From positions 32,001 to 96,000 of the forward strand of contig CAVZQN010000007.1 of NCBI GenBank assembly GCA_963777505.1: a DNA stretch of 64,000 bases, written 5' to 3'. Positions 3,126 to 62,256 of this stretch are shown piece by piece. The position numbers and the translations under genes were made by a program. A model generated the notes under the pieces. That model was given only the letters and a program-made list of their open reading frames with translations, made no database searches and had not been told where the DNA came from. Within the stretch, counting starts at the first letter, position 1. Every line of letters begins with the position of its first letter. Source of the DNA: an uncultured bacterium. Lineage in GTDB: Bacteria > Acidobacteriota > HRBIN11 > JAKEFK01.

Positions 3126-3135
3126 GAAGGTTTCT

Positions 3136-3798
3136 ATGAGATGTTTTCGGATCGGATATTCCAAAAAACTAATGCAGTATATTCATGACTCACTTTCTCC
3201 ACGTGAAACTCAAAATGTGGAGCAGCACGTTTCACAATGTAATTCCTGCAACACAAAGCTAAAACAATTAATGGAAGGAAATTCGCTTGCAAAGCTGATT
3301 CCTGTAATCCAAACACAACAAGATGGCTGGACAAAACTACAAGAGGCGATTTCAAACAATCAGGATGCCGTAAATTCAAAACCCTCTTCGATGGTTCTTC
3401 GAGCCAGTGTTGCTATTGTCTTTCTTTCCGTTGTGAGTTTCTTTTTATGGCGGGCTGCAGAAATGTCTTCTGACAAAATATCCGGACTTGAAGCCTATCG
3501 ATATCGCGAAGTTACAATTCGAAAAATGCCGGAAAATACGGAACCACATGTGGTTACCGAAGGTTACATCAGCGAAGTACGGGTTGATCATCACGACGGG
3601 GATCTTGTTTTTAAACTTGTTGAGAGTCTTGAGAGCCCTACTCCATTTGTGATTTGCGAAATTATTCCACCATTCCGCCTCGATAAGCCCGAGGTTGGCA
3701 ATAAAGTGCGGGTCTATGGTGTCAGCAGGTTTGATCCCAAAGAAAATCATCAATGGTATGAAGTCCATCCTGTTATGGGGATAGAAAAGGTCGAGTAA
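3136..3798 (+). CDS. Zinc-binding (zf-HC2/ZAS) anti-sigma factor with TM helix and extracytoplasmic OB-fold-like domain
   Basis: HVSQCNSC motif, one TM helix, beta-rich C-terminus (DGDLVF..ICEIIP..WYEVHPV); directly follows the ECF gene. Confidence 0.85.
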   Translation: MRCFRIGYSKKLMQYIHDSLSPRETQNVEQHVSQCNSCNTKLKQLMEGNSLAKLIPVIQTQQDGWTKLQEAISNNQDAVNSKPSSMVLRASVAIVFLSVVSFFLWRAAEMSSDKISGLEAYRYREVTIRKMPENTEPHVVTEGYISEVRVDHHDGDLVFKLVESLESPTPFVICEIIPPFRLDKPEVGNKVRVYGVSRFDPKENHQWYEVHPVMGIEKVE

Positions 3799-3841
3799 TT
3801 ATTCAGCTCTTAAAATAAATGTTCAAGGGGTAAATGAGACT

Positions 3842-26555: not shown

Positions 26556-27256
26556 GCAGTGACATTAATTTATCTCGTATCAAATTAGTAAGCTGGGATG
26601 TTGATGGAACTTTGTTCTCATATAAAGAGTTAATTCTTCAGCTACTTTCGAGTACATTTCGCAGAATGAATGTAATGGGCCTGAGAAATACGGCAAAATG
26701 TCTCATTGAAATTTTCAGGTTTCATCACAAAGTTGAAGCGCAGCGGCTGAGTAGCGAATGTAGAGTCATTAATACCGAATTGGATCAATATGAAGCTGCG
26801 AAGGCAGATGAAAAAGAAGCAATACGAGTTGGGCTGAGTAAAATTGCGCCTCGATCGGAAGCAATTGCGATGATTGAGCAATTCGCTGCTGCGGCAATTG
26901 TGCAAGTCGCTCTGAGTGATTTTGAATGTGATTACAAATTAGATGCACTCCGCTTAAGTCATCATTTCAAAAAAGCATATGCTTGTGAGCGCATTGGCTA
27001 TTGGAAGCCATCACCGATTCCTCTTGCACAAATTCAGCGCGATTTCGGAATTGATCCCCAAGAGCATCTTCATATTGGTGATCGATCGTCAACAGATGGT
27101 CTGGCATGTGCGCGGAATGGCTGCCACTTTCTATCTGTGAAACATCTAATAACTCAGCGCCTCGGTAACGGTAGGGGCGGCCCTTCAATTTTTGTTCACC
27201 CAAACGGGCGACCACAAGGGTCGCCCCTACCCCGATCCATATCGAGAGCATATTGA
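26552..27256 (+). CDS. HAD-superfamily hydrolase
   Basis: WDVDGTL, LSD, WKPSP, HIGDRSSTDG; ATGA overlap with the GH3 gene. Confidence 0.9.
   Translation: MSSDINLSRIKLVSWDVDGTLFSYKELILQLLSSTFRRMNVMGLRNTAKCLIEIFRFHHKVEAQRLSSECRVINTELDQYEAAKADEKEAIRVGLSKIAPRSEAIAMIEQFAAAAIVQVALSDFECDYKLDALRLSHHFKKAYACERIGYWKPSPIPLAQIQRDFGIDPQEHLHIGDRSSTDGLACARNGCHFLSVKHLITQRLGNGRGGPSIFVHPNGRPQGSPLPRSISRAY
27171..27230. repeat. GTAGGGGCG-type REP-like element (partial doublet)
   Basis: GTAGGGGCGGCCCTT ... GGGCGACCACAAGGGTCGCCCCTAC. Confidence 0.8.
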
Positions 27257-30177
27257 GCGGCGAATTCCAGGCTCATTTTCGTGCCTGCCTGTTTTAACTT
27301 CGCCGCCTGATCGCTACCAATCCTGATTTCAGCTGGATCTAAGTATCGTCTTTTCAGCTCACTCCAAAATGCGATGGTCAAATTTAGTCCTTCAAAATCT
27401 TTTGCAGCAGTGACAGCCGCAGCAAGACATAAGGCTTTCGAATCCCTTCCCATTCCAGCCAGTGACATCGCAACACCTTCAATCTCAAAAGCGATTTCGA
27501 CACGGTCTCCGTATTTCATTGCAGCTCGTAAACTTTCTACATAATTCATTGCAGCTTTGTTCACATCACCACGGATCAATGCACAGTCCGCCAAGTAGTG
27601 AAGCGCACTATGAATGTCGCGAGGCTCATCATATTTACGCGCAATTTCCAGAGCCTTTACGGATAATGGTTCAGCTTTATCCACTTCCCATTCACTCACA
27701 AGAACCTGACAAATATTTAAAGTCGCCCGATTCATTAACTTTTCGTTTCCGAGTTTACGAAATTGTTCAAGGCTTTCTTCAAAAGCTTTGTATGCGCCAG
27801 CATTATCTCCAACAAACCATAGACTCCATCCATAAGGTTCTAGTGCTAGAGCAACCTCCATCGTATTTCCAAGCTTTCGCCAAATTTCAATACTCTTCTC
27901 AGCTAATTGACGGCCTTCGCTGTGATCAGCCTGCATAGAGGCAAACATTGAAGCTCCCCAAAGTGCGCGGGCCATTTCAGCAGACTCATCAAAGTTTTGT
28001 TTTAGTACACTTTGAAGTTTTTGCCTCCCTTCGGAAATGTGACCATGCAAAAACCAGAACCACACAACGGCACCGATCAGTCTAAGTTCGCCTTCAGGAC
28101 TATTTTTCGATGCCCACAAAATTGCAGAGCGCAAATTATCATGGTCGCGCTCCAGTCTTTCAAGCCAGAAAGTCGAAGATGCGTTACGCTCGTCGTAGGC
28201 ACGATCCGCCATGTTCGCATAATGATCAAAGTGGCGCCTTTGCAATTCCGTGGCATCACTACTTTCTGCGAGTTTTTCCACAGCATACTGCCGAAGCGGC
28301 TCAAGCATTCGATACCGCATCGAATCTTTTTCGCTGCGTTCAGAAACAACAAGCGACTTATCAACGAGTCTTCCCAGTGAATCAAGAATGTCATCCTGAT
28401 TCAATTCACCATATCCGCAGACGTTTTCCACGGCTTCAAGATCAAAACCGGAAAAGCAGGAGAGTCTACGGAATAAAATTCGCTCCGATTCCGGCAGCAG
28501 ATCATAACTCCAATCAACCGCGGCCCGTAAAGTTTGATGACGTTGTAAAGAAGCGCGTGAACTGGATGTTAGCAGTCTAAAACAGTCATCCAACCGTTTA
28601 TGAATTTCAACAACCGACATTGCTTTAATTCGCGCAGCGGCTAGTTCGATTGCTAGTGGAATTCCATCAAGTCTGCGGCAAATCTTAACAACAAAATCTA
28701 GATTGGTTTCGGTTAAAGTGAATCGAGGATCGATTGACTTTGCTCGATCTATGAATAATTGAATTGCATCAAACTGTTTCACGGTTTCAATTGTAAAAAC
28801 ATCGCTTTGCGATGGAAGCGACAGAGGTGGAACAAACCAGACTTGTTCTCCCGCCAGATTAAGTGATTCGCGGCTAGCGGCAAGGACCTTGATGTTTGGA
28901 GCTTTTTGAAGAATCACGCTGATGGCCGCAGCGGTTTCATCAAGCACATGTTCACAATTGTCCATGATTAGCAAAGCATTCTTGTGTCGAAGATAATCCA
29001 CGACAACATCCAGCAAGGGACTATCCTTTTCCTCTTTTAAATTCAGAGCGGTTGCGATACTTTGCAGAACAAGATCATCCGAAGAAATAGGTGCAAGATT
29101 AATAAACCAAACACCATCCGAAAAATTGCGAAGGCTTTTTCCTGCGGCTTCAATTGCAAGACGTGTCTTACCCGACCCTCCAGTTCCACAAACTGTCAGT
29201 AAACGAGAAGACGATAATATCTTTCGTATCTCAGTAAGTTCCTGACTTCGGCCAATGAAATGAGTAATAAAATCCGGAAGATTGTTCCGAGGACCATCGT
29301 GGATTTGCGAACGCGCACTTTCTGATGTTCCGGAACCGGCTGAAAGTTCTTTGAGGTGGTCATATATGTCACGCACGGTTTGATAGCGATCATTCGGATG
29401 TTTCATCAAGCAAAGCTTGATCATCTGATCAAGTTGTTCAGGTATATCGGCTTTGAGATTAGTAATAGGCTCAGGCGTATCTCTCAGTATGGATGAAATA
29501 ATCTCAGCAGTTGAATCTCCTTGAAAAGGTTTTCCACCGGTGATCATTTCAAAGAAAATAATTCCCAGAGAAAAAATATCGGAACGAGAATCCAACTTTT
29601 TTCCTTGAAGCTGCTCTGGAGACATGTAATGGAGAGTTCCGATAACCGTGCCTTCTTTTGTTTCTGCTACTGTTTCGAGATTTGAAGCGCCTGAATCGGA
29701 ATCCTGTATTAAGAGTTTTGCCAGGCCAAAGTCTAAAACCTTCACTCTGCCTTCTTTGCTTACCATTATGTTGGCTGGCTTAAGATCACGATGAATGATT
29801 CCTTTTTCATGCGCTGCGCATAAGGCATCTGCAATTGGGGTTGCGATTCGAAGAAATGCCTCCACATCAAAACCATCTTTAGGAATTATGCTTGCGAGAG
29901 TATTCCCTTCCACAAGCTCCATTGTTAAGAAGTGAATTGATCCGGACTCTTCAACCGAAAAAATCGTCACAATATTCGGGTGATTGAGTGCAGCAACCGA
30001 TTGAGCTTCAGTCTTAAATCGAGTAGCTCGTGCTGGGTCTGCGGAAACGTCTTCAGGTAGTACCTTAATCGCTATCTTGCGCTTCAGTCGCGTATCTTCA
30101 GCTGCATACACTTCGCCCATGCCCCCTTTTCCGAGACGGGCAATAACTTTGTAATGATTGATCATGGTCCCGATCAT
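27196..30177 (-). CDS. Ser/Thr protein kinase fused to STAND/NB-ARC-type ATPase and TPR region
   Basis: GKGGMG, HRDLKPAN, DFGLAK; GTGGSGKT, MDNCEH, LDGIPLAIELAAAR, RHQTLRAAVDWSY; no TM helix. Confidence 0.93.
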   Translation of the reverse strand: MIGTMINHYKVIARLGKGGMGEVYAAEDTRLKRKIAIKVLPEDVSADPARATRFKTEAQSVAALNHPNIVTIFSVEESGSIHFLTMELVEGNTLASIIPKDGFDVEAFLRIATPIADALCAAHEKGIIHRDLKPANIMVSKEGRVKVLDFGLAKLLIQDSDSGASNLETVAETKEGTVIGTLHYMSPEQLQGKKLDSRSDIFSLGIIFFEMITGGKPFQGDSTAEIISSILRDTPEPITNLKADIPEQLDQMIKLCLMKHPNDRYQTVRDIYDHLKELSAGSGTSESARSQIHDGPRNNLPDFITHFIGRSQELTEIRKILSSSRLLTVCGTGGSGKTRLAIEAAGKSLRNFSDGVWFINLAPISSDDLVLQSIATALNLKEEKDSPLLDVVVDYLRHKNALLIMDNCEHVLDETAAAISVILQKAPNIKVLAASRESLNLAGEQVWFVPPLSLPSQSDVFTIETVKQFDAIQLFIDRAKSIDPRFTLTETNLDFVVKICRRLDGIPLAIELAAARIKAMSVVEIHKRLDDCFRLLTSSSRASLQRHQTLRAAVDWSYDLLPESERILFRRLSCFSGFDLEAVENVCGYGELNQDDILDSLGRLVDKSLVVSERSEKDSMRYRMLEPLRQYAVEKLAESSDATELQRRHFDHYANMADRAYDERNASSTFWLERLERDHDNLRSAILWASKNSPEGELRLIGAVVWFWFLHGHISEGRQKLQSVLKQNFDESAEMARALWGASMFASMQADHSEGRQLAEKSIEIWRKLGNTMEVALALEPYGWSLWFVGDNAGAYKAFEESLEQFRKLGNEKLMNRATLNICQVLVSEWEVDKAEPLSVKALEIARKYDEPRDIHSALHYLADCALIRGDVNKAAMNYVESLRAAMKYGDRVEIAFEIEGVAMSLAGMGRDSKALCLAAAVTAAKDFEGLNLTIAFWSELKRRYLDPAEIRIGSDQAAKLKQAGTKMSLEFAAQYALDMDRGRGDPCGRPFG

Positions 30178-30217
30178 GATCAATTATTGTAAACGAAACC
30201 CTGAGAATTGAACTATT

Positions 30218-47464: not shown

Positions 47465-48393
47465 TTATCTGCGGTGTCGGGTTTGAGTCTCCTTCTCATC
47501 TTCGGACTTTTGCTCTTCAATGAATATCGTATTGGAAGTGCCATCTTGAATTGATGGCACGCCACTTTGTTGATCCTGCGCCGGGGGAGTTGTTGAATCT
47601 TCCGCAGCCTCTTCTCCAATGAATATCGTATTGGAAGTGCCATCTTGAATTGATGGCACGCCACTTTGTTGATCCTGCGCCGGCGGAGTTGTTGAATCTT
47701 CTGCAGCCTCTTCTCCAATGAATATCGTATTGGAAGTGCCATCTTGAATTGGATGGCACGCCACTTTGTTGATCCTGCGCCGGCGGAGTTGTTGAACCTT
47801 CTGCAGCCTCTTCACCAATGAATATCGTATTGGAAGTGCCATCTTGAATTGGATGGCACGCCACTTTGTTGATCCTGCGCCGGCGGAGTTGTTGAATCTT
47901 CTGCAGCCTCTTCTCCAATGAATATCGTATTGGAAGTTCCATCTTGAATTGGAGGCACGCCACTTTGTTGGTCCTGCGCTGGCGGAGTTGTTGAACCTTC
48001 TGCAGCCTCTTCTCCAATGAATATCGTATTGGAAGTGCCATCTTGAATTGGAGGCACGCCACTTTGTTGGTCCTGCGCCGGCGGAGTTGTTGAACCTTCT
48101 GCAGCCTCTTCTCCAATGAATATCGTATTGGAAGTTCCATCTGCGATTGTTCCGGTAGAATTATTGTTGGCACCAGCCGATGATTGCGCAGTATTTTCGT
48201 TTGATGTAGCGCTTCGAGAGCTCGGATAGGTACGTTCGTTAAATAGAGGGTTTGCTTTCGGAGTTTCAAATTTGCTTTCCGATTCCGCGATTCCTCGCGA
48301 ACTTCGAGCTTTGTTCGAAACAGAAGATTCTGTTTTGCTGGATTCGTCCGCTCCAGTTATATTCGCTTGATTGTCCGCTTTTCTGATTTGCAT
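47465..48393 (-). CDS. Tandem-repeat protein (about 308 aa once two +1 indels are corrected) with 7 DGTSNTIFI motifs
   Basis: GGAGG RBS, MQIRKADNQ...; 33-aa unit IQDGTSNTIFIGEEAAE(G/D)STTPPAQDQQSGVP(P/S) across ORFs 47812..48393 and 47465..47842. Confidence 0.8.
47519..48145. repeat. Coding tandem repeat, 99-bp unit, about 6.3 copies
   Basis: AATGAATATCGTATTGGAAGT starts at 47519, 47618, 47717, 47817, 47917, 48016, 48115 (spacing 99,99,100,100,99,99). Confidence 0.97.
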
Positions 48394-49344: not shown

Positions 49345-50301
49345 TTACATTCCAGCGTCTGCCGCGCAACGAAAACCGTTGGTCGGGCGACGATCCAATT
49401 TTTCCATTCTTCGTCTGAATGTTGTCCGCATCTCAACCCATGAAGATTGATATGTTCCACCGCGAAGAATGCCGAATGTATCATCCGGTTTTTCAAGCTG
49501 GCCAGCTGGTGAATTGGGATAAGGATACCAGGAATCAGTAACCCACTCCCAAACATTTCCAGCAAGATCAAAAACGCCCATGGGACTCTTGTCTTCAGGA
49601 GCTGAACCGACCGGTCTTGCAACAAGTTCTCCTGAACTCCACTTGGATGCAACGGAAGCATCATTGCCCCACGGAAATCTTCGTCGATCATTCCCACGTG
49701 ACGCATATTCCCATTCCACTTCGGCGGGCAATCGTACTTTTCGCCACCTGCAATACGCAACCGCTTCATACCAGGAAACTCCTTCTACTGGATGATTCTC
49801 TTTTCCGGATGCAAAGGAACCATTTGCCCAGGTCGCCGGCCCGAACTTCCCTGTTGTATCTTTAAAAAGTCTGACTCGATCCATGCCTGTATAATCGGCA
49901 TTTAGATTGGGAGTCACAATCAACTCTTTCCAGAATTCCTTTCGTTCATAACCGCCATCGGAGATGAAGTCTTTATATTCTTGATTCGTTACTTCATACT
50001 TCGAGATTCTAAATGCTCGAACTTTTACCTTGTGATCCGGGCATTCCAAAAAGTACATCCGCGGACTGACGGTTGCATCAGGCGGGTAAAAATCTTTAAC
50101 AACTTGTTCGGCCTCTTCCGTTGAGAGCCCCATAACAAATTCACCTTCAGGAATTAATACAAGATCTTTGCTAATATCTTTTGCCATAATTTCCTCGCTT
50201 TTTATTTTCTGAATTTGTTTCGTCTGTGCTTCAGGATTTGATATACCATCCGAAATGATCCCTGTTGCACAAAAGAACACCAGAAAGATTTTCCACGGCA
50301 T
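49345..50301 (-). CDS. Formylglycine-generating enzyme (FGE-sulfatase/SUMF1) domain protein, probably exported
   Basis: IPEGEFVMG, YEVTNQEY, HPVEGVSWYEA, RLPAEVEWE, DLAGNVWEW, GFRC; hydrophobic N-terminus; starts 7 nt after the upstream gene's stop. Confidence 0.9.
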   Translation of the reverse strand: MPWKIFLVFFCATGIISDGISNPEAQTKQIQKIKSEEIMAKDISKDLVLIPEGEFVMGLSTEEAEQVVKDFYPPDATVSPRMYFLECPDHKVKVRAFRISKYEVTNQEYKDFISDGGYERKEFWKELIVTPNLNADYTGMDRVRLFKDTTGKFGPATWANGSFASGKENHPVEGVSWYEAVAYCRWRKVRLPAEVEWEYASRGNDRRRFPWGNDASVASKWSSGELVARPVGSAPEDKSPMGVFDLAGNVWEWVTDSWYPYPNSPAGQLEKPDDTFGILRGGTYQSSWVEMRTTFRRRMEKLDRRPTNGFRCAADAGM

Positions 50302-50308
50302 CCGATCA

Positions 50309-52447
50309 TTAATCCGGAACAATAACGCCCCGTACGTGTTTCTTATACTCTTCAACCGTCATGGATTGAATTCCATTGCGCGCATCGTCAGTTCGTACAT
50401 TAGGATTCGTTTGCGTAGTTCCATTCGGACCTACATCGGTTCCTATTCCGGCCTGATCTCCGCCCCACGGATTCCTGAAGTACACGCGTCCATCTCGGAC
50501 TTCAGTGACCTCCACGGCGTGTCCACCGCCCTGCCAGGCAAGACGTGTATGTACCGGACCTTTTCCGTTTGCGAGTTCCGATTTGGTTTTTTCAAGAATA
50601 TCTGTCTTGTCGTCGCGGAAATTCCATGAACCGTCATAGTGGGAATAATTTTTGTTGTGCAATCCTTCCATGACTCTTTCCTGTTCGTCATATACCAGAC
50701 CTGTTTGGCCATCATTGAATCGGCCAGGCTGAGGCAAGTTCGTATATCCCTTACCTGGGCGCGCATAATCCATCAATGCGGATTGCATAAGCCGTTCACT
50801 GTCGCTTCGAGTGCTGGTATCTTGAGCAAAAGCATCAGCTGGAGCCTGAATTGTCTTACCGTTTGCAAGTTTAGATTGTCCTGTTTGGGCAAGATCTGTT
50901 GCAATACGGGCATATTCCGCTGGATTCTTCGATGCCATCGTATGACTCATGCTGGTAACCGTACATGTGTCTCGGTTGGACTGATCTATATAATGATTCG
51001 GATCGCTAACTTCATTCAGCAGGTTCTCAGTGAAACGTTCCTTCGTTGTTCCCGTCATGCGGGTATCGAGAGGATTCATCGCAGCACGATCCAATTGCTC
51101 TAGCAGCGTTCCTGTATTTCCGTACCCACGGCTGGTCAATGCAGGTTGTCCATTAACATCGCGGCTCATGAGGTTCTGTAGAGCGTCTCGACCGCGCGGA
51201 GATGTATTCTCAAAAACATTCAGCATGCGCTTCTGATCTTGAGTTGATAATCCCGCAAAGCGATCATGCTTGATCATGCGATCTAGACTCTGCAAATATG
51301 CCGGGTTCGCTTTGTCCGAAGCTGCCATGTTAAGCACTTGTGTTTTATTCGCATCATCCATGCCGCGGAAATTTGGACTTCCTGAGATATCGCGAAGACT
51401 TTGCGTGTAAGCTGCATCCTCCGGCTTCTTGGCTTGTGCCTTCAAAAGTTGATCTTGATGTGTGCGTGAAAGCTGACCGAAATTAGGATCGGTTGCAAGC
51501 TTACTCAAATTGTCTTTTGCAGCTTGATTTCCATGATGTTTTTCTAATTGTTCAAGAGTTTGCTTTTGAGTATCTGCATTCAGCTTTTTAAAGTTCGCAT
51601 CATTTTCAAGGTTGGCGCGGTCTTTTACTGTGTCTTTTACAGCCTGGGTATGAGTAGCATCCGTTGGATTGGTTTGCAAACGATCCAATGCGGCTTTTTG
51701 CCCTTCAGGAGAAAGCTTTGCGAAGTTAGGATCAGTCGCGACTCCAACTAAATTTGTGCGTGATGCCTGATTTTCCGGTGCGTCCGGTTTACCGGCTTTT
51801 TGTTCGCTGTATTTGCCCATCTGATCCCGGATTTGCTGTTGTGTTTCCGGTTTCAGAGTTTTGAAGTTCGGGTCCGATTCAAGCTTTAAACGGTCTTGCG
51901 TTCTCGCACCCGCATCTCCATCTGCAGTAAGTCCATTTTCCTTTTGAAATTCTTTTACTGCGCCTTTCGTTTCATTACCATATTTACCATCAACTCCGAT
52001 CTGAGCTTTGCCTTGCCCGGCACGAACATCGTTTAACTGATTTTGAAGATTTTCAACTTCCGGACCTTTACTTCCTTCTTTTAATAATTTCGGAGCCGCT
52101 GGGGCAGTGGAAGTTGTAGCTCCCGTACCCGTACCAGTTGTTGGAGGCGGTGTTGAACCGGTTACAGGAGGTCCACCAGAAGGAGGCGTACCCGTGCCTG
52201 TCACAGTCGGTGGAGCCGCTTGTGATTCAATTTGTGCCTGACGCGCTTGTCCTTCGATCGTATGTTCGGCAACTCGTGCTGATCGGCCCTCCGCGGTCAT
52301 CGGTTTCGAAGTTTGCGTTGTTTGTGCCTGACTTTCAGGCGTGGATGTTTGTTTTACACTTTCCTCTTTTGCAACTGGTGTCGTACTTTCGGTCGCAGCA
52401 GGAGCAGGCTGCGGACTCGTTGACCGTGGACCAACTTTATCAACCAT
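50309..52447 (-). CDS. Putative secreted effector: disordered N-terminus + peptidoglycan-binding domain + helical repeats + papain-fold Cys-His-Asn domain
   Basis: LLKEGSKGPEV..LQ..DGKYG..T..AV..FQ..GL.ADG (PG_binding_1); six (D/S)PNF..L-like repeats; IDQSNRDTC, GGHAV, FRNPWG; no signal peptide. Confidence 0.8.
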   Translation of the reverse strand: MVDKVGPRSTSPQPAPAATESTTPVAKEESVKQTSTPESQAQTTQTSKPMTAEGRSARVAEHTIEGQARQAQIESQAAPPTVTGTGTPPSGGPPVTGSTPPPTTGTGTGATTSTAPAAPKLLKEGSKGPEVENLQNQLNDVRAGQGKAQIGVDGKYGNETKGAVKEFQKENGLTADGDAGARTQDRLKLESDPNFKTLKPETQQQIRDQMGKYSEQKAGKPDAPENQASRTNLVGVATDPNFAKLSPEGQKAALDRLQTNPTDATHTQAVKDTVKDRANLENDANFKKLNADTQKQTLEQLEKHHGNQAAKDNLSKLATDPNFGQLSRTHQDQLLKAQAKKPEDAAYTQSLRDISGSPNFRGMDDANKTQVLNMAASDKANPAYLQSLDRMIKHDRFAGLSTQDQKRMLNVFENTSPRGRDALQNLMSRDVNGQPALTSRGYGNTGTLLEQLDRAAMNPLDTRMTGTTKERFTENLLNEVSDPNHYIDQSNRDTCTVTSMSHTMASKNPAEYARIATDLAQTGQSKLANGKTIQAPADAFAQDTSTRSDSERLMQSALMDYARPGKGYTNLPQPGRFNDGQTGLVYDEQERVMEGLHNKNYSHYDGSWNFRDDKTDILEKTKSELANGKGPVHTRLAWQGGGHAVEVTEVRDGRVYFRNPWGGDQAGIGTDVGPNGTTQTNPNVRTDDARNGIQSMTVEEYKKHVRGVIVPD

Positions 52448-52501
52448 AATTCCTCCTAATATTAAGATCTTATCGATAAACGAAAACTATCGGCTATTGA
52501 G

Positions 52502-52528
52502 TTATCGACAAATTGATTGCGCGAGTTG
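52502..52528 (-). promoter_or_regulatory. FliA/sigma28-like promoter
   Basis: Minus strand CAAC-N15-GTCGATAA (sigma28 consensus TAAA-N15-GCCGATAA), 54 nt upstream of the ATG at 52447. Confidence 0.5.
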
Positions 52529-52632
52529 TGTCGCTGGCTATTTGCGGATGTTCTTTGTTTCTACCTTCTTGTTATATCACGGAAGATAAGGAAATGTTCA
52601 GGTAATCTTTACGCGTTTCACGTCATGAAATG

Positions 52633-52653
52633 TAGTTTCACAATGTGAAACTA
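52633..52653. promoter_or_regulatory. Perfect palindrome, candidate transcription-factor site in a divergent promoter
   Basis: TAGTTTCACA-A-TGTGAAACTA. Confidence 0.55.
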
Positions 52654-52681
52654 TCGTACAAATCGTGCTGCCGCGCGTTGG

Positions 52682-52707
52682 GGAATTTTTCTGCCAATTG
52701 TGCGTTA
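52682..52707 (+). promoter_or_regulatory. Copy 2 of shared bipartite promoter-like motif
   Basis: GGAATTT-N11-GTGCGTTA, 20 nt before the ATG at 52728, GGAGGA RBS between. Confidence 0.6.
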
Positions 52708-52727
52708 TCAGTAGGAGGAATACCTTA

Positions 52728-53327
52728 ATGGCAGCGGAAATAATTCGGACGCCGGAAACAAAGCGGGCTCTACCTCCCAATATTCAGACCGTTGCCTCGG
52801 GAATTTCTTCGGCCGCGAAATCACAACCGAAAGAATTAATCGATCATGCCATCCAGTCCTTTAAGTCGATTCAGGAAAAGCAGCTTGGAACTGATGAGTT
52901 GTTTAGATTGCTTGGAGATACATCTGCCCAAGCTGCAGGCCATGTAGACCATCCATTAAAGTATTTCACGTACGAATCCGGAATACGAAAACATCCAGAT
53001 CATAATTCGATTGTCTCAATGAATGATGTGCTTTCACGTCTTCGCAATCAAAGTCTGCATTTTCATCAAGGAATTTCTTCCTTTTTGAGATCAGGTGTTC
53101 AGGAATCTCTTGCGAGTCTGAAAATTAGCAGCAATCCAGGCCTGACTCATCCGCCTGTTCCAACGTCACTGGATGAACTGATTTCAACTGAAAAGTTGAG
53201 AAATCCTGATCGTGATGGATTACAAGTATCGTTGCAAATTATGAATGAAATGTTTTCGACGCTTAAAAGCCTGCAAAGCGACGTCACCGATTTGCGTGTA
53301 AACATGATGCGTTCCATTCGAGCATAG
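52728..53327 (+). CDS. Hypothetical 199-aa helical protein with T3SS needle/filament/translocator-like C-terminal helix
   Basis: Strong RBS, no signal peptide; ends LQIMNEMFSTLKSLQSDVTDLRVNMMRSIRA; directly upstream of a SycD-like chaperone. The functional call is an inference. Confidence 0.6.
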   Translation: MAAEIIRTPETKRALPPNIQTVASGISSAAKSQPKELIDHAIQSFKSIQEKQLGTDELFRLLGDTSAQAAGHVDHPLKYFTYESGIRKHPDHNSIVSMNDVLSRLRNQSLHFHQGISSFLRSGVQESLASLKISSNPGLTHPPVPTSLDELISTEKLRNPDRDGLQVSLQIMNEMFSTLKSLQSDVTDLRVNMMRSIRA

Positions 53328-53336
53328 AGGTTAAGA

Positions 53337-53810
53337 ATGCCAGGAATCAATAAAGTCAAATTCGAACAATTTCGAAACGGGGAAATCAAGTTCACTCAAG
53401 TTTTGAATCTTGACGCGAACCAGGTCGCTTCCCTTTTGCTTTGCGGGCATAATTTTTTTTCTCATGGCCGCATGGAGGAAGCCAAAAAGATCTTTGAGGG
53501 ATTATCTCTTTTGGATCCTAATATTCCATATGTTCACTGCATTCTGGGAGCTATTTATCAACACCTGGAAAAATATGATGCAGCAATCCTTCGATATAGC
53601 CGCGCGATAGAACTTTTTCCACAGGATATCCTCTCCTTAACAAATCGAGCCGAAATTTATCTGAACCAGGGAAAGTTCCAGGAAGCGGCACAGGATTTAA
53701 GAAAAGCAATTGAACTGGACCCGGAAAACAACAATCCTTCAGCGAAACGTGCCCGATTATTAGCTGCCATCACGGCAGAAGCATTGCTGTCAGCAAAAGG
53801 AAAACGATAG
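53337..53810 (+). CDS. TPR protein resembling SycD/LcrH (class II T3SS translocator chaperone)
   Basis: 157 aa, three TPRs; N-terminal FRNGEIKFTQVLNLD..GHNFFSHGRMEEAKKIFEGLSLLDP matches the LcrH-type layout. Confidence 0.72.
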   Translation: MPGINKVKFEQFRNGEIKFTQVLNLDANQVASLLLCGHNFFSHGRMEEAKKIFEGLSLLDPNIPYVHCILGAIYQHLEKYDAAILRYSRAIELFPQDILSLTNRAEIYLNQGKFQEAAQDLRKAIELDPENNNPSAKRARLLAAITAEALLSAKGKR

Positions 53811-53864
53811 TATATTTGCGGATAACATTTATGAGGGGTCTTAGACCGCTCATCATACATTGCG

Positions 53865-56800
53865 ATGTCTTCCGAGAATTGGAATCGGATTAATGAACTG
53901 TTTTATGCAGCTCTGGACCGCCCTCCAGAGTTGCGCGCTGCCTTTCTGAAAGATGCATGCGGTTCGGATTCAACACTTCAGCAAGAAGTAGAATCGCTGC
54001 TTGCTGCGTATACTGACTCAGAGAACTTCATTCAATCCCCTGCCAGTAAAAATGCTCTTGAGTTTTTGCAACATCAGGATGTACAGCTAGCTACCGGCGA
54101 TCGGGTTGGCGCATATAATATCGTTCGCGAAATTGGACGCGGTGGAATGGGTGCCGTTTATCTTGGAGCACGCGCCGATGAACGATTCCAAAAATCAGTT
54201 GCAATCAAACTCATAAAGCGCGGAAGAGACACGGATGATGTCTTAAGGCACTTCCGTAATGAGCAACAAATTCTTGCAAACTTTGATCATCCAAACATTG
54301 CCCGTTTAATTGATGCAGGCAGTACCGAAAACGGCCTTCCGTATTTCATTATGGAACACGTTGAAGGTCAGCCGATCGATCAATTTTGCGATGGGCGATC
54401 GCTTTCAATTACGCAGCGTTTAGAGTTATTTCAGCAAGTGTGTGCTGCGGTATCCTATGCGCATCGCAATCTCGTTGTTCATCGGGATATCAAGCCATCC
54501 AATATCCTGGTGAATTCAGCTGGCGTTCCAAAATTACTCGATTTTGGTATCGCCAAAATCCTGCAGTCCGAAACAGGCGAGCGATCCACCGCAACCGGCA
54601 TCCATTTTATGACGCCCGAATATGCGAGTCCCGAGCAAGCGCAAGGAATGCCGGTAACAACTCTGAGTGATGTCTATTCATTGGGCGTTTTGTTGTACGA
54701 ACTTTTAACCGGTCACTCACCTTACCCTTTGGAAAATCGTTCGGCATTAGAGGTTATGCGGACGATTACGGAGACCCAGCCACAATTACCTAGCGCGATC
54801 ATCAATTCAATTAATCCTGAGTCTGTCAGTAAGACTCGCGAAGGCAGTCCGGAAAAGTTGCGCAGGCGATTGCGTGGAGATTTGGACACTATTGTTTTGA
54901 TGGCGATGCGGAAAGAACCTCAACGGCGTTATCAATCCGTTGATCAACTTTCAGAAGACATTCGGCGACACTTGCAAGAGCTTCCGATCACAGCACGCAA
55001 GGATACATTCGCTTACCGAACCGCAAGATTCGTACTCCGAAACAGAGTCACCGTTGCGATTACTATACTGTCCCTTTTAACAATCGCCTTATTCGGTGCT
55101 GTCATGCAATGGAGATCAAACAAGCAAGCGAAGTTGTTTCAGGAATTCGGACAGGAGGTCAGCCGGATCGAAGCGTCCATGCGTTATGTCTACCTTCTTC
55201 CTTTGCATAATATTCAGCGCGATAAACAGAAAGTCGTAAATCGGCTGAACTCCATGAAGAAAAGGATGCAAGAGATGGGCGGCGTTGCTTACGGACCTGG
55301 CTATTATTCGATCGGAAGAGGCTATCTTTCACTTCATCGATTTCAAGATGCCCACGACAACCTGATTCTTGCATGGCAAAAATATCAGTATCAAGAACCG
55401 GCCGCAGCAAATGCACTGGGTTTATCTCTCGCAATGCTCTATCAGGAAAAGCTTCGTGAAGCAGAACAGTTATATAACAAGGAACAATTGAACCGGCGGA
55501 AAAAAGAACTCGAAGAACTGTATGGCGTACCTGCGCAACAATACATTCAAAAAGGATCGAACGCCTCCGAAGCTCCTGAATATGTGCAAGCACTGTTGGC
55601 ATTTCTTGCAAAACAGTATCCTGAAGCGCTAGATAAAGCGCGCGCTGCAGAACAAGAAATTTCCTGGCATTACGAATCGCAAAAACTTCAAGGTGACATT
55701 TTTGCCGCGATGGGCAATGAACAAAGCAGTGTAGGAAAGAATCCTGATGCTTTAGCATTATATGAGAAAGCAAAGGCGGCATATCTAGAAGCAGCAAAGA
55801 AAGGACAAAGCGATCCACAGATCTATGATGCGTTGTGTTCAGTTCACGCTTCAATTCAAGAAATGCTGGTTCAACAAAAAGGAAGTTCGCCCGAGTCAGT
55901 TTTCACGGAAGGGGTGACCTTTTGTGAGAAAGCAATCATGGCAGATTCAAAGGATATCAATGCAAATCTCATTGCTTCCAAAATTTATCTCGGTTGGGCT
56001 TTTTATCAAAATGAACTGGGAATAGACTCATCGCAAATGTTCGACAAATCTGCGGACTTCGCACGCGAAGCGCTTAAGATCGACCCCGAAAGTGGCCTGG
56101 CTCATCTTGCACTTGGCAATACTCTCAGCAACAACGCAAATTTTGATCTTATTCAAGGGAAAGATCCATCTCCATTTCTAGATCTTGCTGAGCCCAGTCT
56201 TATAAAGGCAAGCAAAAAAATGCCTGAAGACCATGAGCTGTTATCAGTTATGGCCAACAATTCTTTGAAGCGCGGTCAATATGAATTCGAAAAAGGAAAA
56301 AATCCACATCAGAGATTCCAAACAACGATCGATCTATTAAAAAAAGCAATTCAGCTTAGTCCTGACAATTCTAGATACTTTGCCATGCTTGGGGCGGCTT
56401 ATTGTCGGAAAGCTAACAATGAGGATTACACTGGGTTAGATCCTCGTGCATCATTGGAAGAGTCGATTCAGCACTCCAAGCGAAGTTTTACGATCAACCC
56501 AAATTATTTAGCCCCATATGTATGGAGTGGACTTGCTTATATGGGATTGGCAAGCTATGAAATCGAGAGGGGCGAGAATCCGAATCAAGCACTTGATGAA
56601 GCCCTGAAGGCATACAACCAATGTATAGCATTACATCCTGGACAATCGTATGCTCACGCAGGTGTTGGTATCGCACTATGGAAGAGAGCGCATGTTTTAC
56701 AGAAAGAAGGAAAGGATCCGACGGCCGATCTGAATAAGTCTCGTGAGGCATTCAAAAAAGCATTGCAGTTAGACAAACAGACAGTCATTACGTATGCATT

Positions 56801-57245
56801 TTTTGCTGAAGTGGGACTTGTTGCAGCACGCGATGCTATATCGAAAAGAAAGTCTCCACAGCCTTTTTTTAACGAATCAGAAGAAATTGTGCGTGCTTGT
56901 TTATCAATCAATCTGGATTCGAATGAATGTCTGGAATCTTTGACTGCTCTCCATTTGTTGCGCGCAGAATATCGTGTTTCCTTGGGAAAATCTCCGGAAA
57001 GCGAAATTCGCATTGGGCTTAGCACCGCCGAGAAAGCTCTCAAAGAGAATCCAAGAAATGCTCTCGAAACGGCATATCGCGGACAATTATTCTTAATACG
57101 CGCTCAATCCTCAACCGGAGAAACACGTCAAAAAGCTGCACGAAAAGCTGCTGAGTCTTTCGATCAGTCATTCAAGATGAAGAGTATTCTCCGCAGGGAG
57201 TACGGGAAAAATTGGGAAGAATCAAAACAACTTGCTAAGAATTAG
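53865..57245 (+). CDS. Membrane Hanks-type Ser/Thr kinase with large C-terminal TPR region (copy 1)
   Basis: GRGGMG, HRDIKPSN, DFGIAK, TPEYASPEQ, LRGDLDTIV; single TM helix; N-terminal W.RI.ELF..AL..P..R..FL..ACG extension typical of ECF-linked kinases. Confidence 0.95.
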   Translation: MSSENWNRINELFYAALDRPPELRAAFLKDACGSDSTLQQEVESLLAAYTDSENFIQSPASKNALEFLQHQDVQLATGDRVGAYNIVREIGRGGMGAVYLGARADERFQKSVAIKLIKRGRDTDDVLRHFRNEQQILANFDHPNIARLIDAGSTENGLPYFIMEHVEGQPIDQFCDGRSLSITQRLELFQQVCAAVSYAHRNLVVHRDIKPSNILVNSAGVPKLLDFGIAKILQSETGERSTATGIHFMTPEYASPEQAQGMPVTTLSDVYSLGVLLYELLTGHSPYPLENRSALEVMRTITETQPQLPSAIINSINPESVSKTREGSPEKLRRRLRGDLDTIVLMAMRKEPQRRYQSVDQLSEDIRRHLQELPITARKDTFAYRTARFVLRNRVTVAITILSLLTIALFGAVMQWRSNKQAKLFQEFGQEVSRIEASMRYVYLLPLHNIQRDKQKVVNRLNSMKKRMQEMGGVAYGPGYYSIGRGYLSLHRFQDAHDNLILAWQKYQYQEPAAANALGLSLAMLYQEKLREAEQLYNKEQLNRRKKELEELYGVPAQQYIQKGSNASEAPEYVQALLAFLAKQYPEALDKARAAEQEISWHYESQKLQGDIFAAMGNEQSSVGKNPDALALYEKAKAAYLEAAKKGQSDPQIYDALCSVHASIQEMLVQQKGSSPESVFTEGVTFCEKAIMADSKDINANLIASKIYLGWAFYQNELGIDSSQMFDKSADFAREALKIDPESGLAHLALGNTLSNNANFDLIQGKDPSPFLDLAEPSLIKASKKMPEDHELLSVMANNSLKRGQYEFEKGKNPHQRFQTTIDLLKKAIQLSPDNSRYFAMLGAAYCRKANNEDYTGLDPRASLEESIQHSKRSFTINPNYLAPYVWSGLAYMGLASYEIERGENPNQALDEALKAYNQCIALHPGQSYAHAGVGIALWKRAHVLQKEGKDPTADLNKSREAFKKALQLDKQTVITYAFFAEVGLVAARDAISKRKSPQPFFNESEEIVRACLSINLDSNECLESLTALHLLRAEYRVSLGKSPESEIRIGLSTAEKALKENPRNALETAYRGQLFLIRAQSSTGETRQKAARKAAESFDQSFKMKSILRREYGKNWEESKQLAKN

Positions 57246-57253
57246 AGCTGCAA

Positions 57254-60200
57254 ATGTCATCCGAAAATTGGAATCGGATTAATGAGCTGTTTTACGCAGC
57301 TTTGGAGCATGCTCCGGAGCTGCGTGATTCATTCTTAAAAGATGCATGCGGAACAGATTCAACACTTCAGCAAGAAGTAGAATCGCTGCTTGCTGCGTAT
57401 ACTGACTCAGAAAACTTCATTCAATCCCCTGCCAGTAAAAATGCTCTTGAGTTTTTGCAACATCAGGATGTACAGCTAGCTACCGGCGATCGGGTTGGCG
57501 CATATAATATCGTTCGCGAAATTGGACGCGGTGGAATGGGTGCCGTTTATCTTGGAACACGCGCCGATGAACGATTCCAAAAATCAGTTGCAATCAAACT
57601 CATAAAGCGCGGAAGAGACACGGATGATGTCTTAAGGCACTTCCGTAATGAGCAACAAATTCTTGCAAACTTTGATCATCCAAACATTGCCCGTTTAATT
57701 GATGCAGGCAGTACCGAAAACGGCCTTCCGTATTTCATTATGGAACACGTTGAAGGTCAGCCGATCGATCAATTTTGCGATGGGCGATCGCTTTCAATAT
57801 CACGCAGCGTTTAGAGTTATTTCAGCAAGTGTGTGCAGCGGTATCCTATGCGCACCGCAATCTCGTTGTTCATCGGGACATCAAGCCATCCAATATCCTG
57901 GTATCGAATTCAGCTGGCGTGCCAAAATTACTCGATTTTGGTATCGCCAAAATCCTGCAGTCCGAAACAGGCGAGCGATCCACCGCAACCGGCATCCATT
58001 TTATGACGCCCGAATATGCGAGTCCCGAGCAAGCGCAAGGACTGGCGGTAACAACTCTGAGTGATGTCTATTCATTGGGCGTTTTGTTGTACGAACTTTT
58101 AACCGGTCACTCACCTTACCCTTTGGAAAATCGTTCGGCGTTAGAGGTTATGCGGACGATTACGGAGATACCCAGCCACAATTGCCTAGCGCGAATCATC
58201 AATTCAATTTCTAATCCTGAGTCTGTCAGTAAGACTCGCGAAGGCAGTCCGGAAAAGTTGCGCAGGCGATTGCGTGGAGATTTGGACACTATTGTTTTGA
58301 TGGCGATGCGGAAAGAACCTCAACGGCGTTATCAATCCGTTGATCAACTTTCAGAAGACATTCGGCGACACTTGCAAGGGCTTCCAATCACAGCACGCAA
58401 AGATACTTTTGCATATCGCACTACACGATTTGTGCTGAGAAACAGAATCACCGTTGCGATTACCATACTTTCGCTTTTAACAATTGCTTTGTTTGGTGCA
58501 ATCATGCAATGGAGATCGAATAAGCAAGCCAAGTTATTTCAGGAATTCGGACAGGAGGTCACGCGAATCGAAGCATCTATGCGATATGCGTACCTGCTGC
58601 CTTTACATAACATTCAACCCGATAAAGAGAAAGTCGTTGACCGGTTGGACTACATGAAAAAGAGAATGCAAGAAATGGGAAGTGTTGCATACGGAGCTGG
58701 TTATTATTCGCTGGGAAGAGGCTATCTCTCACTTCATCGATTTCAAGATGCGTATGACAATCTGATTCTGGCCTGGCAAAAGTATCAGTATCAAGAGCCG
58801 GCTGCTGCAAATGCACTGGGGCTGTCACTTGCAATGCTTTATCAGGAAAAGCTTCGTGAAGTAGAACAGTTACGTGATAAGGAACAATTGAATAAGCAAA
58901 AAGCAGAACTCGAAAAACGGTATGGGGTACCTGCACAACAATACATTCAAAAGGGAGCAAATTCGTCTGAAGCTCCTGAATATGTACAAGCACTATTGTC
59001 GTTTCTGGCAAAACAATATCCCGAGGCTTTAAACAAAGCGCAAACAGCTGAGCAAGAAATTTCATGGCATTACGAATCAAAAACACTTCAAGGTGACATT
59101 TTTTCTGCTATGGCAAATGAACAATACCGTGTAGGAAATATTTCTGAAGCTTCCGAACTATATGAAAAAGCAAAGGCTGCATATCTTGAAGCGGCAAAGA
59201 AAGGGCAAAGCGATCCACAGATCTATGAGGCGTTATGTTATGTTCAATCCCAGATTCAAGAAATACAAATAGATCACAAAAGAAAATCATCAGAAGAAGG
59301 TGTTGACGAAGCAATCAACTATTGCAAGAGCGCACTACAGATTGATTCAAAAAACATCAACGCAAATTTAATTGCGTCAAGAGTCTATAAAAATTGGGCT
59401 TATTATCAGTCCGATCATGGTAATGATCCATCCATCCCGGCGGAAAAGTCTGCCAACTTCGCACATGCAGCGCTAAAGATCGATTCAGAAAATGCGTTCG
59501 CGCATATTGCACTCGGTGAGGCATATTCAACACGTTCCAATTGGGAACTCATTCGCGGGCGAGATCCGATTCCATTTCTGGACCGTGCTGATGTCAGTTT
59601 TACAAAAGCAGCACAAAAACTGCCGGACGATTATCAGTTGTTGTTTCTTCTTGCCAACAATTCTATAAAGCGGGCACAAGATAATATTGTTAACGGGAAG
59701 GATCCGCGCCCGGCGCTCGAAAAATCGATCGAATTTACCGGAAAGGCAATCCCGCTCAATCCGCCGCACATTTTTAGGTATTTCACCATGCTCGGCCACG
59801 CATATCATGTGAAGGGGCAATATGAATTTGACATCGGGTTAGATCCACGAGACTCATTTAACAAATCGATTGAACTATCAAAGCAAAGCATTACAGCGAA
59901 TCCCAACTATTTCATACCTTATATATGGTGTGGACACTCCTATTTGGGACTCGCATTTCATCATATTCAAACAGGAAAGGATCCAAATGCGGCATTGGAT
60001 GAAGCACTCAAGTTTTACAAAAGCACTATTACCATGGACCCTGAGAATTCTTATGCATATCTCGGGATTGGTCTTGTGCACTCAAGGAAAGCCGAGGTTT
60101 TGCTGAAAGAGGGAAAGGATGTAACTCACATCATCAAAATGTGGCGCGAAGCGTTTGGGAAAACGTTGCAATTGGATAATTCGTACACCGCCTTTTATTA

Positions 60201-60648
60201 CTATTTTGCAGAAGCCGAACTCATTGCAGCACGAGATGCTGTATTTCGACGTAAGCAACCAGAGCCATTCTTCAAGGAATTGGAACGAATTGTGCGGGAA
60301 TGCCTTTCAATCAATCCACAATCGGCGGAATGTTTGGAATCATCAGCGGCATTCCATTGGTTGCGCACTGAGTATTCTGCTTCTTTAGGGAAATCAACTG
60401 AAAGCGAAATCCGTATCAGCATGAAAGCTGCCGATGACTCTTTGAAAGTGACCCCCAACAATGGTTTAGTACTCGCCTATCGCGGAAAATTACTTTTGAT
60501 CCGGGCCCAATCTTCATCCGGGGCAGAAAGAAAAAAAGCTGCACAAGAAGCGCAGGCCTCATTTGATAAAGCATTCAAGGCGAAAACAACTCTCCGCAAG
60601 GAATACGAAAAATATTGGGAAGAGGCAAAACGGCTGAGTCAAGACTAA
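57254..60648 (+). CDS. Membrane Hanks-type Ser/Thr kinase with TPR region (copy 2; net frameshift near 57798, likely artefact)
   Basis: ORFs 57254..57814 and 57775..60648 are colinear with copy 1. Confidence 0.88.
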
Positions 60649-60655
60649 GCTGGCA

Positions 60656-60679
60656 GGCGGGTCTTAGACCCGCCCCTAC
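60656..60679 (-). repeat. GTAGGGGCG-type REP-like element
   Basis: GGCGGGTCTTAGACCCGCCCCTAC. Confidence 0.75.
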
Positions 60680-60686
60680 AAGGCTA

Positions 60687-61530
60687 TTAATCTTCTTTTG
60701 GGAGGGTCTGATCTAAATGGAAAAGGGACGAATTGTTTTCTTGTTGTGAGAGATTTTCATTCGTCTGAAATTCTTGCCACACTGGCTCTTGTACGATCGC
60801 ATCCATGTTCATGATCTGTTCACGGGCCGGCTGAGCTTCACGTTCCAGTCTCAACTTTTCCTGCTCAATCGATGCAATGGTGGATTGAATTTCGTTATCT
60901 GTACTCTCCAGGTCCGACATGAGTTGATCCGCATTCATCTCATGCTGCACTGCTTTTTTCTCCAACTCAGCTTGAGCCTGTTTTGCCTTAGCTTTGTAAT
61001 CGCCGGATAGTCCAGCAAAAGCTCCCACTAATCCACCTATGATAGGGATAGCAGGTAGACCACCAATGATTCCTAAAATCCCGGCTGAGCCCATTAGTGC
61101 AAGAACTTCCTCTGAAATCGGCTTGTCAGCCTTGATGGAATCCGCTATTTCCTCTTGCGGCCATTTGAGCATTCTTTCCCTCGGTTTTCTGATGCTCGAT
61201 CTGTTTTACAAATTCGAGCCTCTTTTCTTCCAAAGACTTCAACTTGTCATTCAGCTGCGGTAACGTGTTATCGAATTGTGGACTCATTTCGAAAGAACTA
61301 AAAAGAGACGAAGCTTCTACAGTTGTGTCCAGAGTTGTCGGTGGCTGGATCACGTCTGCAGGTTGAGACTGCGGATCAATGAGATACGAATTGTACGTCT
61401 TAGCCGTCTCAAATAAATCGGTATCTTTCGCAACCCCAAAACTGGTCGTGGGTTGAGGTGGAACCTCCGGTTGCGGCTCCTGATTCACTGTCGTAGGAAC
61501 AAAGTTGGATATTCTTCTGATGAAACTCAT
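60687..61530 (-). CDS. About 280-aa coiled-coil protein with central hydrophobic hairpin, translocator/pore-former-like (frameshift near 61160)
   Basis: ORF 61126..61530 (RBS, Pro/Thr/Gln-rich N-terminus, coiled coil) joins ORF 60687..61172 (LMGSAGILGIIGGLPAIPIIGGLVGAFAGL, coiled coil); no signal peptide. Confidence 0.62.
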
Positions 61531-61549
61531 TTGTGCTCCTCCATATCAG

Positions 61550-61575
61550 TAACGCACGGGTCTTGTGTAAATCGC
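61550..61575 (-). promoter_or_regulatory. Copy 3 of shared bipartite promoter-like motif
   Basis: GCGATTT-N11-GTGCGTTA, 19 nt before the ATG at 61530, GGAGGA RBS between. Confidence 0.6.
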
Positions 61576-61609
61576 CCAGAAAAACTTCTTTTCTACCTGG
61601 CAACTAACT

Positions 61610-61634
61610 GGGCGGCCACAAGGGCCGCCCCTAC
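61610..61634 (-). repeat. GTAGGGGCG-type REP-like element
   Basis: GGGCGGCCACAAGGGCCGCCCCTAC, identical core to 33590-33613. Confidence 0.8.
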
Positions 61635-61671
61635 TAGTTCTGCCATGCGCTATAATTTGGATAACGAGAAG

Positions 61672-62256
61672 ATGAAGGAAGAGCAAGATCCGAAAAGCCG
61701 CGAAGATGTTACCAAACTCCTGATCGATTGGGGGAAAGGAGATCGTTCTGCGCTTGATGAAATGCTGCCGCTTGTCTACAGCGAGCTAAAGCGTCTTGCG
61801 TCTTACTATCTCAGTCAGGAGCGCAACGACCACACGTTGCAGACTACCGCATTAGTTCACGAAGCATATATGCGGTTAGTGGATCAACAAAACGTGAATT
61901 GGAAAAATAGGGCGCACTTTCTTGGGGTAGCTGCAGAAATGATGCGCAGGATTCTGGTAAATCATGCACGCGATCGCGCTGCTGCAAAGCGCGGCGGCGG
62001 AGCAAAACGCGTTTCATTAAGCGGCATTGGCGAAGGCGGCGACCAACCCGATATTGATCTGATTGCGCTCGATCAAGCACTCACAGAACTTGCCGTTTTC
62101 GATGCCCGGAAAAGCCGCATCGTGGAACTAAAGTTTTTTGGAGGATTGACCACAGAAGAAACGGCCGAAGTGATGGACATTTCGCACGGTACAGTGGAAA
62201 CCGAATGGAAGATGGCACGCGCCTGGCTCTATCGTGCAATTTCTGGAAATAAATAG
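61672..62256 (+). CDS. ECF sigma factor, TIGR02999 / ECF43-type (kinase-activated)
   Basis: VTKLLIDW..GDRSALDEMLPLVYSELKRLA, HTLQTTALVHEAY, RRILVNHAR, AKRGGG, W.MARAWL. Confidence 0.93.
   Translation: MKEEQDPKSREDVTKLLIDWGKGDRSALDEMLPLVYSELKRLASYYLSQERNDHTLQTTALVHEAYMRLVDQQNVNWKNRAHFLGVAAEMMRRILVNHARDRAAAKRGGGAKRVSLSGIGEGGDQPDIDLIALDQALTELAVFDARKSRIVELKFFGGLTTEETAEVMDISHGTVETEWKMARAWLYRAISGNK

Follow-up and report, generated by a model that had tools for sequence, protein, structure and literature searches.

Most of what is known of type III secretion (T3S) comes from Proteobacteria, Chlamydiae and myxobacteria. Two groups of its chaperones matter here: the class II proteins that pair with translocators (SycD/LcrH-YopB/YopD, AcrH-AopB, IpgC-IpaB/IpaC and PcrH-PopB/PopD) and the needle chaperones (PscE/PscG-PscF, YscE/YscG-YscF and SsaE/SsaH-SsaG), which keep the needle subunit unpolymerised. 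Among bacterial signalling systems, the ECF43 group of extracytoplasmic function (ECF) sigma factors has a neighbouring Hanks kinase as its hallmark and QTTA as its consensus motif, the Thr of which is taken as the phosphorylation site on the basis of EcfP and EcfK (available portion of PMC13147305). Elements resembling both kinds of system lie side by side at positions 49345-62256 of a 64,000-nucleotide stretch of DNA from an uncultured member of the Acidobacteriota (assembly GCA_963777505.1, contig CAVZQN010000007.1), which is referred to at its full length as the window (G000:C7:32001-96000, where G000 is this genome: 5.23 Mb, 14 contigs, 95.86% complete). On balance, we favour the view that Ser/Thr kinases and a sigma factor form a signalling unit at this locus, with a type III-style chaperone and its cargo at the core. 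The chaperone-cargo part appears to be new, on sequence evidence that comes mostly from relatives, while the ECF43-kinase part is of a known kind. A literature search, with most subscription journals outside its coverage, found no account of T3S in Acidobacteriota and no description of kinase-linked chaperone-cargo modules such as these.

An initial annotation, made from the window sequence by itself, had proposed a kinase- and ECF43-controlled accessory locus of a T3S-like system, an interpretation which as a whole is partly supported by the present analysis. All of the elements it named were recovered in place by open reading frame (ORF) listing and family scans, on which the following inventory is based.

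49345-50355, minus strand: FGE-sulfatase domain protein (PF03781, 168 bits).
50309-52447, minus strand: PG_binding_1 protein of 712 aa (family scan), a candidate effector.
52633-52653, no strand: perfect inverted repeat (10-1-10) ~75 bases before X199, within the divergent promoter region.
52728-53327, plus strand: X199, 199 aa, a small protein predicted to be all-helical, without a known family; presumed cargo of TPR157.
53337-53810, plus strand: TPR157, 157 aa, candidate SycD/AcrH-like chaperone with three tetratricopeptide repeats (TPRs); best NCBIfam model TIGR02552 (LcrH_SycD).
53865-57245, plus strand: STK1, Hanks kinase of 1126 aa with one transmembrane segment (about 393-416) and C-terminal TPRs.
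57254-60648, plus strand: STK2, tandem paralog of STK1 with one transmembrane segment and C-terminal TPRs, split by a frameshift.
60687-61530, minus strand: frameshifted gene for a coiled-coil protein whose central segment is Gly-rich and hydrophobic.
61645-62256 (ORF callable from 61453), plus strand: ECF43-type sigma factor (PF07638, TIGR02999), with QTTA at 61840-61851.

TPR157 is small and all-helical, with three TPRs and N- and C-terminal capping helices. Its predicted structure (pLDDT 92.1) matches solved class II chaperones over the whole fold, with the translocator chaperone AcrH as the closest match along the full length. The TIGR02552 model covers it at model positions 4-130 of 136 with a score of 69.8 bits, below the cut-off of 104.8, and the same is true of the paralogs lying next to the T3S gene cluster of G001, a relative of the same genus (85.1 and 81.7 bits). 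The SycD/LcrH-like identity that had been assigned to this protein is borne out by whole-length structure together with genomic context, which place TPR157 with type III class II chaperones and not with generic TPR proteins. A scan of a genome collection with TPR157 returned only generic TPR matches of 24-70% local identity in unrelated phyla. Three small paralogs are present in G000.

This protein is similar in size, three-TPR fold and capping helices to the four class II chaperones named above, and its gene likewise stands tightly beside that of a small helical cargo and, in relatives, beside sctV. Unlike class II chaperones, it falls short of the TIGR02552 cut-off and belongs to a family of 4 to 9 copies per genome; the cargo gene precedes the chaperone gene instead of following it, many of the cargos have a needle domain in place of transmembrane translocator features, and a PxLxxP-type motif is not conserved in them. 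The initial annotation had pointed to such a chaperone-binding motif in X199. The motif (PGLTHP, 53136-53153) is indeed present, but it lies in a variable stretch of a 13-sequence alignment of the X199 family and is absent from the other 12/13 sequences, and is best read as a chance occurrence.

The pairing of chaperone and cargo genes is conserved. The X199 family comprises 35 representatives (30 with E below 1e-10) which share a conserved C-terminal helix, predicted at 162-198 in X199. Six loci of this family were available (the window, G003:C331, G003:C295, G005:C522 and two metagenome contigs), and in 6/6 a TPR-family gene follows the X199-family gene after 7-13 bases. The metagenome contigs, which were the yield of a scan with the X199 family, are short (1773 and 1455 bases), and both show the X-TPR pair but nothing more of its surroundings. 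When each TPR-family gene in the fetched loci was assigned the ORF immediately preceding it as its partner, many of these partners were found to end in a tail of the needle-protein type. The needle family PF09392 (T3SS_needle_F) matches 6/15 upstream partners tested, with a best score of 32.8 bits against a cut-off of 29.4, and a profile of eight partners searched against the PDB retrieved the needle fragment 7y6c_F (E 3.7e-5), followed by YscF, MxiH and PrgI, along with designed-repeat proteins that we took as spurious. In G028 and G002 these upstream partners are the only PF09392 matches genome-wide, and the one in G002 is paired with the TPR protein that most resembles TPR157 (59% identity).

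X199 thus occupies the needle-like gene position, its homology to needle proteins being unproven. A TPR-like chaperone paired with a protein that carries a C-terminal needle helix is also what is seen in the needle chaperone systems listed above, for which 7y6c and 2p58 came up as PDB matches. The systems differ in that the partners described here are 105-465 aa long with long variable N-terminal regions, compared to 80-98 aa in the solved needle chains that the partner profile retrieved; that no small YscE-like co-chaperone was identified here; and that the chaperone here resembles SycD-type proteins. A search of a language-model atlas with X199 gave weak leads (0.88-0.91) to clusters containing EspA, LcrV and chlamydial effectors, and a PDB profile search with X199 gave nothing clear.

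A link to T3S machinery is seen in relatives. In a survey of 251 genomes of the phylum, with SctV called above the hrcV equivalog cut-off, the TPR157 family was found in 18 genomes and SctV in 19, with 15 having both: SctV is present in 15/18 carriers of the family, compared to 4/233 non-carriers. Carriers without SctV are G000, G085 and G107, all of them draft genomes with 90-96% completeness; the reverse combination occurs in G007, G039, G054 and G084. In 40 relatives searched separately at E 1e-20, the TPR family was detected in 11, and FHIPEP in 11/11 of those. Further to that, a family member is located within 4 kb of sctV in eight genomes from three families (G001, G003, G005, G028, G045, G073, G129 and G160), the gap being about 200 bases in 4/8 of them. 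The family gives nine matches in G003 and seven in G005, including tandem copies beside sctV (G003:C187 and G005:C778).

The cluster in G001 (C3, about 92-110 kb) is non-flagellar. Its SctV scores 786.7 bits against a cut-off of 692, with the FlhA model below its own cut-off, and it further comprises SctU, T, S, R, a FliK-like protein, a YscO-like protein, SctN, SctL, a short SctJ, a FliA-like sigma factor, FliO and an FHA-SctQ fusion; families of rod, hook or flagellin proteins were not detected in it. Two partner-plus-TPR pairs flank the cluster. Three secretin genes each are present in G001 and G000, none of them near the cluster, and the G001 machine is therefore without a secretin of its own. 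This is similar to the secretin-less 'Myxo' non-flagellar type III secretion system (T3SS), the hosts being free-living environmental bacteria in both cases (Abby and Rocha 2012, available portion of PMC3459982). According to the same portion of that paper, Myxo systems lack SctF; in the relatives studied here, in contrast, needle-domain proteins are present and multiplied, and SctV passes the hrcV equivalog cut-off.

The sigma factor scores 184.5 bits against PF07638 (cut-off 21.1) and 218 bits against TIGR02999 (cut-off 126.15). By these models, and by QTTA replacing DAED in region 2.2, it is of the ECF43 type, an already known kind, just as the initial annotation had it, and matching kinases adjoin its gene. 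The true start is probably the ATG at 61645, giving a protein of 203 aa, so that the gene does not overlap that of the coiled-coil protein. Both kinases end ~1 kb upstream of the ECF gene, and family scans found no anti-sigma-like family among its neighbours. STK1, which begins 55 bases past the TPR157 gene, is a Hanks kinase of the receptor type; it has an N-terminal extension of 80 aa, a transmembrane segment and a TPR ectodomain. The extension is common to four other G000 kinases, 3/4 of which directly follow an ECF43-type gene. STK2 is 95% identical to STK1 over the first 184 aa and about 70% identical thereafter. Close homologs of the kinases (61-73% identity) are labelled 'Acidobacteriota bacterium', which agrees with the host that had been guessed for this DNA. 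Homologs of the TPR protein bear the label 'bacterium' and nothing more. A host from the PVC group, suggested by DUF1559 and PF07638, was rejected in view of the kinase labels. A paralogous pair at G000:C7:137267-145072 consists of an ECF43 factor (71% identical) and a kinase (43% identical), and has paralogs of the N-terminal half of the PG_binding_1 protein on either side.

With EcfP/PknT of Vibrio parahaemolyticus and EcfK/PknS of Xanthomonas citri the window shares the family models, the QTTA motif and an adjacent transmembrane Hanks kinase with TPRs (available portion of PMC13147305). It differs from both in having two tandem kinases. The sigma gene comes after the kinases with an opposite-strand gene in between, whereas in three paralogous G000 pairs it directly precedes the kinase; and the presumed output, which would be type III cargo and not a type VI secretion system (T6SS) such as the one that EcfK controls, is put forward by inference only.

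The association of the TPR family with kinases extends beyond the window. In G000, a kinase domain is found no more than 1 kb away from 3/4 TPR-family genes and no more than 3.5 kb away from 4/4, compared to 4.8% and 13.1% of the genome, respectively. Co-directional X-TPR-kinase arrangements are also present in G003:C295 and G002:C12. One of the TPR157 paralogs, on contig C5 of G000, has a kinase on one side and an FHA-GAF sigma-54 activator on the other, with a PP2C phosphatase also near. A perfect sigma-54 promoter (G000:C5:6170-6185), the only perfect match to the consensus in 18 kb, is found 24 bases before the ATG of this TPR gene, which is preceded by a Shine-Dalgarno sequence. The same layout of TPR gene, FHA-GAF activator and kinase recurs in G003:C283, with a sigma-54 site carrying one mismatch (L078:9494-9509). 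In these two modules the chaperone operon is likely to be the output of a kinase-fed transcription factor, and by analogy the same control logic may operate through ECF43 in the window. A sigma-54 promoter was sought in the window as well, giving three one-mismatch matches, as many as expected by chance and none upstream of X199.

The coiled-coil protein has no whole-length relative in 40 other genomes at E 1e-5, and a language-model atlas search with a paralog of it gave no usable match. Its first ~95 residues, however, match a 464-aa protein encoded divergently next to the X199-family gene in G003:C331 (hhalign probability 96%, E 4.3e-9), and the only matches to this N-domain in G003 and in G005 abut an X199-TPR pair. 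A shared N-domain followed by differing C-terminal bodies would fit the pattern of secreted cargo families. The gene set that the initial annotation had grouped together is therefore conserved in part: X199 and TPR are joined in 6/6 loci, and a coiled-coil N-domain gene adjoins in both relatives having one, while no ECF43 gene accompanies them in the loci of nine relatives.

From these data we suggest a mechanism in which TPR157 would hold X199 by its C-terminal helix and may also hold the coiled-coil protein through the shared N-domain, both cargos being kept unassembled until exported by a type III machine. Detection of a signal by the STK1/STK2 TPR ectodomain would result in phosphorylation of the Thr of QTTA. 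The phosphorylated sigma factor would then bind RNA polymerase and increase transcription of the X199-TPR157-kinase operon, and perhaps also of the divergent PG_binding_1/FGE pair.

A number of results weigh against this proposal. A six-frame search of G000 with hidden Markov models detected no FHIPEP (PF00771), FlhB/SctU (PF01312) or FliP/SctR (PF00813), and tblastn of the core proteins of the G001 cluster against G000 (the queries being 86 ORFs called in 80 kb of G001, T3SS cluster included) returned only FHA-domain matches and, at 30% identity, an ATPase match that is presumably the F1-type ATP synthase. The initial annotation had proposed a genome search of this sort as a check, and by that check, with no export gate gene in the assembly, its idea would be refuted; the relatives described above alter the picture. 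At 95.86% completeness the absence of a type III core from the organism is not proven, and export here is putative: the machine has either gone unassembled or been lost, and if lost, the module is an orphan. Synteny between G000 and G001 is poor (orthologs 25-60% identical and scattered) and does not separate a deletion of the cluster from an assembly gap. The TPR-family carriers fall in only five families of related genomes, the TPR157 family being clade-restricted, and the co-occurrence counts given above are not independent.

The cargo and the promoter evidence raise further difficulties. X199 has a model pLDDT of 48.8, and its last 75 residues have no PF09392 match at E 0.05, nor do three other members of the X199 family tested. 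In profile comparison, X199 aligns weakly with the needle-like partners, end-anchored at the C-terminus (hhalign E 0.0016, probability 16%) and with a cluster-side partner of G001 (E 6e-4, probability 28%), and gives no alignment with the G002 partner. The needle-like C-terminus attributed to X199 by the initial annotation accordingly stands as regards the gene position it occupies and not as regards a needle-family match of its own. No ECF match was present in loci of nine relatives (7 to 20 kb each), so that sigma-factor control of the window genes stays conjectural, and no 5-mer/4-mer dyad was common to at least five of 15 regions upstream of ECF43, partner and coiled-coil genes.

In one alternative reading, the small TPR protein serves, like its variable partner, as an adaptor or substrate in Ser/Thr-kinase signalling, with no secretion machine involved and with the chaperone likeness reflecting shared ancestry or fold only. 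We regard this as unlikely. It would agree with four intact TPR-family genes in an assembly that has no type III core gene, with the proximity of all four to kinase domains (≤3.5 kb), with the PP2C phosphatase, kinase and FHA sigma-54 activator that surround the C5 copy, and with the presence of the family in G085 and G107 without an SctV match. At the same time, 15/18 carriers have an injectisome-type SctV, eight genomes have a member within 4 kb of its gene, and the three carriers without SctV are incomplete drafts (90-96%). Partners of the TPR proteins carry needle domains, to our knowledge without any signalling role. That the genes might simply be unrelated neighbours, a routine ECF43-kinase pair near generic TPR and hypothetical genes, is a weak explanation and in our view a very improbable one. 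Adjacency by chance is common in a genome with about 96 kinase loci and 66 TIGR02552-like TPR matches, and the relatives' loci have no ECF43 gene; the explanation is nevertheless at odds with X199-TPR adjacency in 6/6 loci at gaps of 7 to 13 bases, with the sole coiled-coil N-domain gene of G003 and of G005 abutting such a pair, and with three of four TPR genes lying within 1 kb of a kinase domain where 4.8% is expected.

Loss of the type III machine from this lineage, with the genes of the locus as decaying leftovers, seems to us distinctly unlikely, despite core genes that are gone without remnants and despite the split state of STK2, of the coiled-coil gene and of a kinase near another TPR copy (C7:169.4-170.4k). 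Frames are open in X199, TPR157 and the other three TPR-family copies of G000. The split in STK2 is due to a +2-base insertion near codon 181 relative to STK1, and a different assembly contains an intact form of 1123 aa that is 96% identical; in comparison with its intact paralogs, of 291 and 294 aa, the coiled-coil gene is split too. Two unrelated genes of the window, encoding DUF3179 (296-1507) and DUF1559 (47517-48393) proteins, are each divided into two ORFs as well, so that the 64 kb contain four split genes in all, a hint of indel errors in the assembly. Assembly indels and real decay are indistinguishable for the split genes, and with an intact STK2 elsewhere and unrelated genes affected in the same way, STK2 and the coiled-coil gene cannot be called pseudogenes.

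A broader scenario can be sketched, although we consider it doubtful. The lineage may have multiplied needle-domain and related helical proteins, each with a SycD-like chaperone to itself, to 4-9 sets per genome, every set placed on its own kinase-driven switch (ECF43 or an FHA-type sigma-54 activator). A single secretin-less machine would then be fitted with needle, tip or translocator parts selected by the signal, or the sets would have a secretion-independent role where the machine is absent. What is unusual in the relatives is an injectisome-type export gate without its own secretin, together with several needle-domain proteins with long N-termini, each paired with a translocator-type chaperone. 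Equally unusual is the repeated physical link of chaperone pairs to Hanks kinases that feed known switches (ECF43 and FHA-sigma-54 activators). If functional, this link would give a testable path by which external signals determine which type III parts free-living soil bacteria use, and would extend ECF43 outputs beyond the T6SS case. The genome under study, in which the modules are present and the machine is not detectable, represents a natural test case.

The two genes divergent from X199 may constitute an effector-plus-immunity pair. The peptidoglycan (PG)-binding protein consists of a disordered Thr/Pro-rich N-terminus, a PG_binding_1 domain, five DPNF-type repeats and a C-terminal domain; no signal peptide was seen in its sequence. 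The C-terminal domain, which has no sequence relative in the PDB, contains Cys495, His643 and Asn659, invariant across three paralogs, and may be papain-like, judging from motif patterns and these three residues. It is found in only 4/251 genomes of the phylum, all from the family to which this genome belongs (f1). In G005:C542, a homolog of the PG-binding protein and a TPR-family gene lie about 1.8 kb apart on opposite strands. Each PG-binding paralog in G000 is followed by a gene for an FGE-domain protein, the paralogous pairs having the same order (C5:115.6-118.6k and C3:396.2-398.9k). In the window FGE protein an internal Met is followed by a lipobox-like leader, suggesting a true start near 50301 and making this protein a candidate immunity protein or periplasmic partner. 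G000 and G001 show 89% identity in the C-terminal domain of the PG-binding protein (G001:C3:675661-676419), compared to 25-60% for other shared proteins, which suggests recent transfer or unusually strong constraint.

The inverted repeat between the divergent genes (52633-52653) is probably the operator of a global regulator, as predicted from the distribution of its 17-base core, which has exactly six occurrences in the genome, 6/6 of them between called ORFs. Near-copies of the repeat are often paired, 19-20 bases apart.

A reading of the locus as a defence system was considered and dropped, PADLOC models having given only generic matches to kinases and coiled coils. Elsewhere in the window, a second ECF sigma gene (2520-5942) is followed by a gene for a 220-aa protein without a family and a TonB-dependent receptor gene, and looks like a FecI-type surface-signalling layout. 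At 27196-30183 on the minus strand, a 995-aa protein combines Ser/Thr kinase, NB-ARC and TPR domains and represents a STAND-type kinase.

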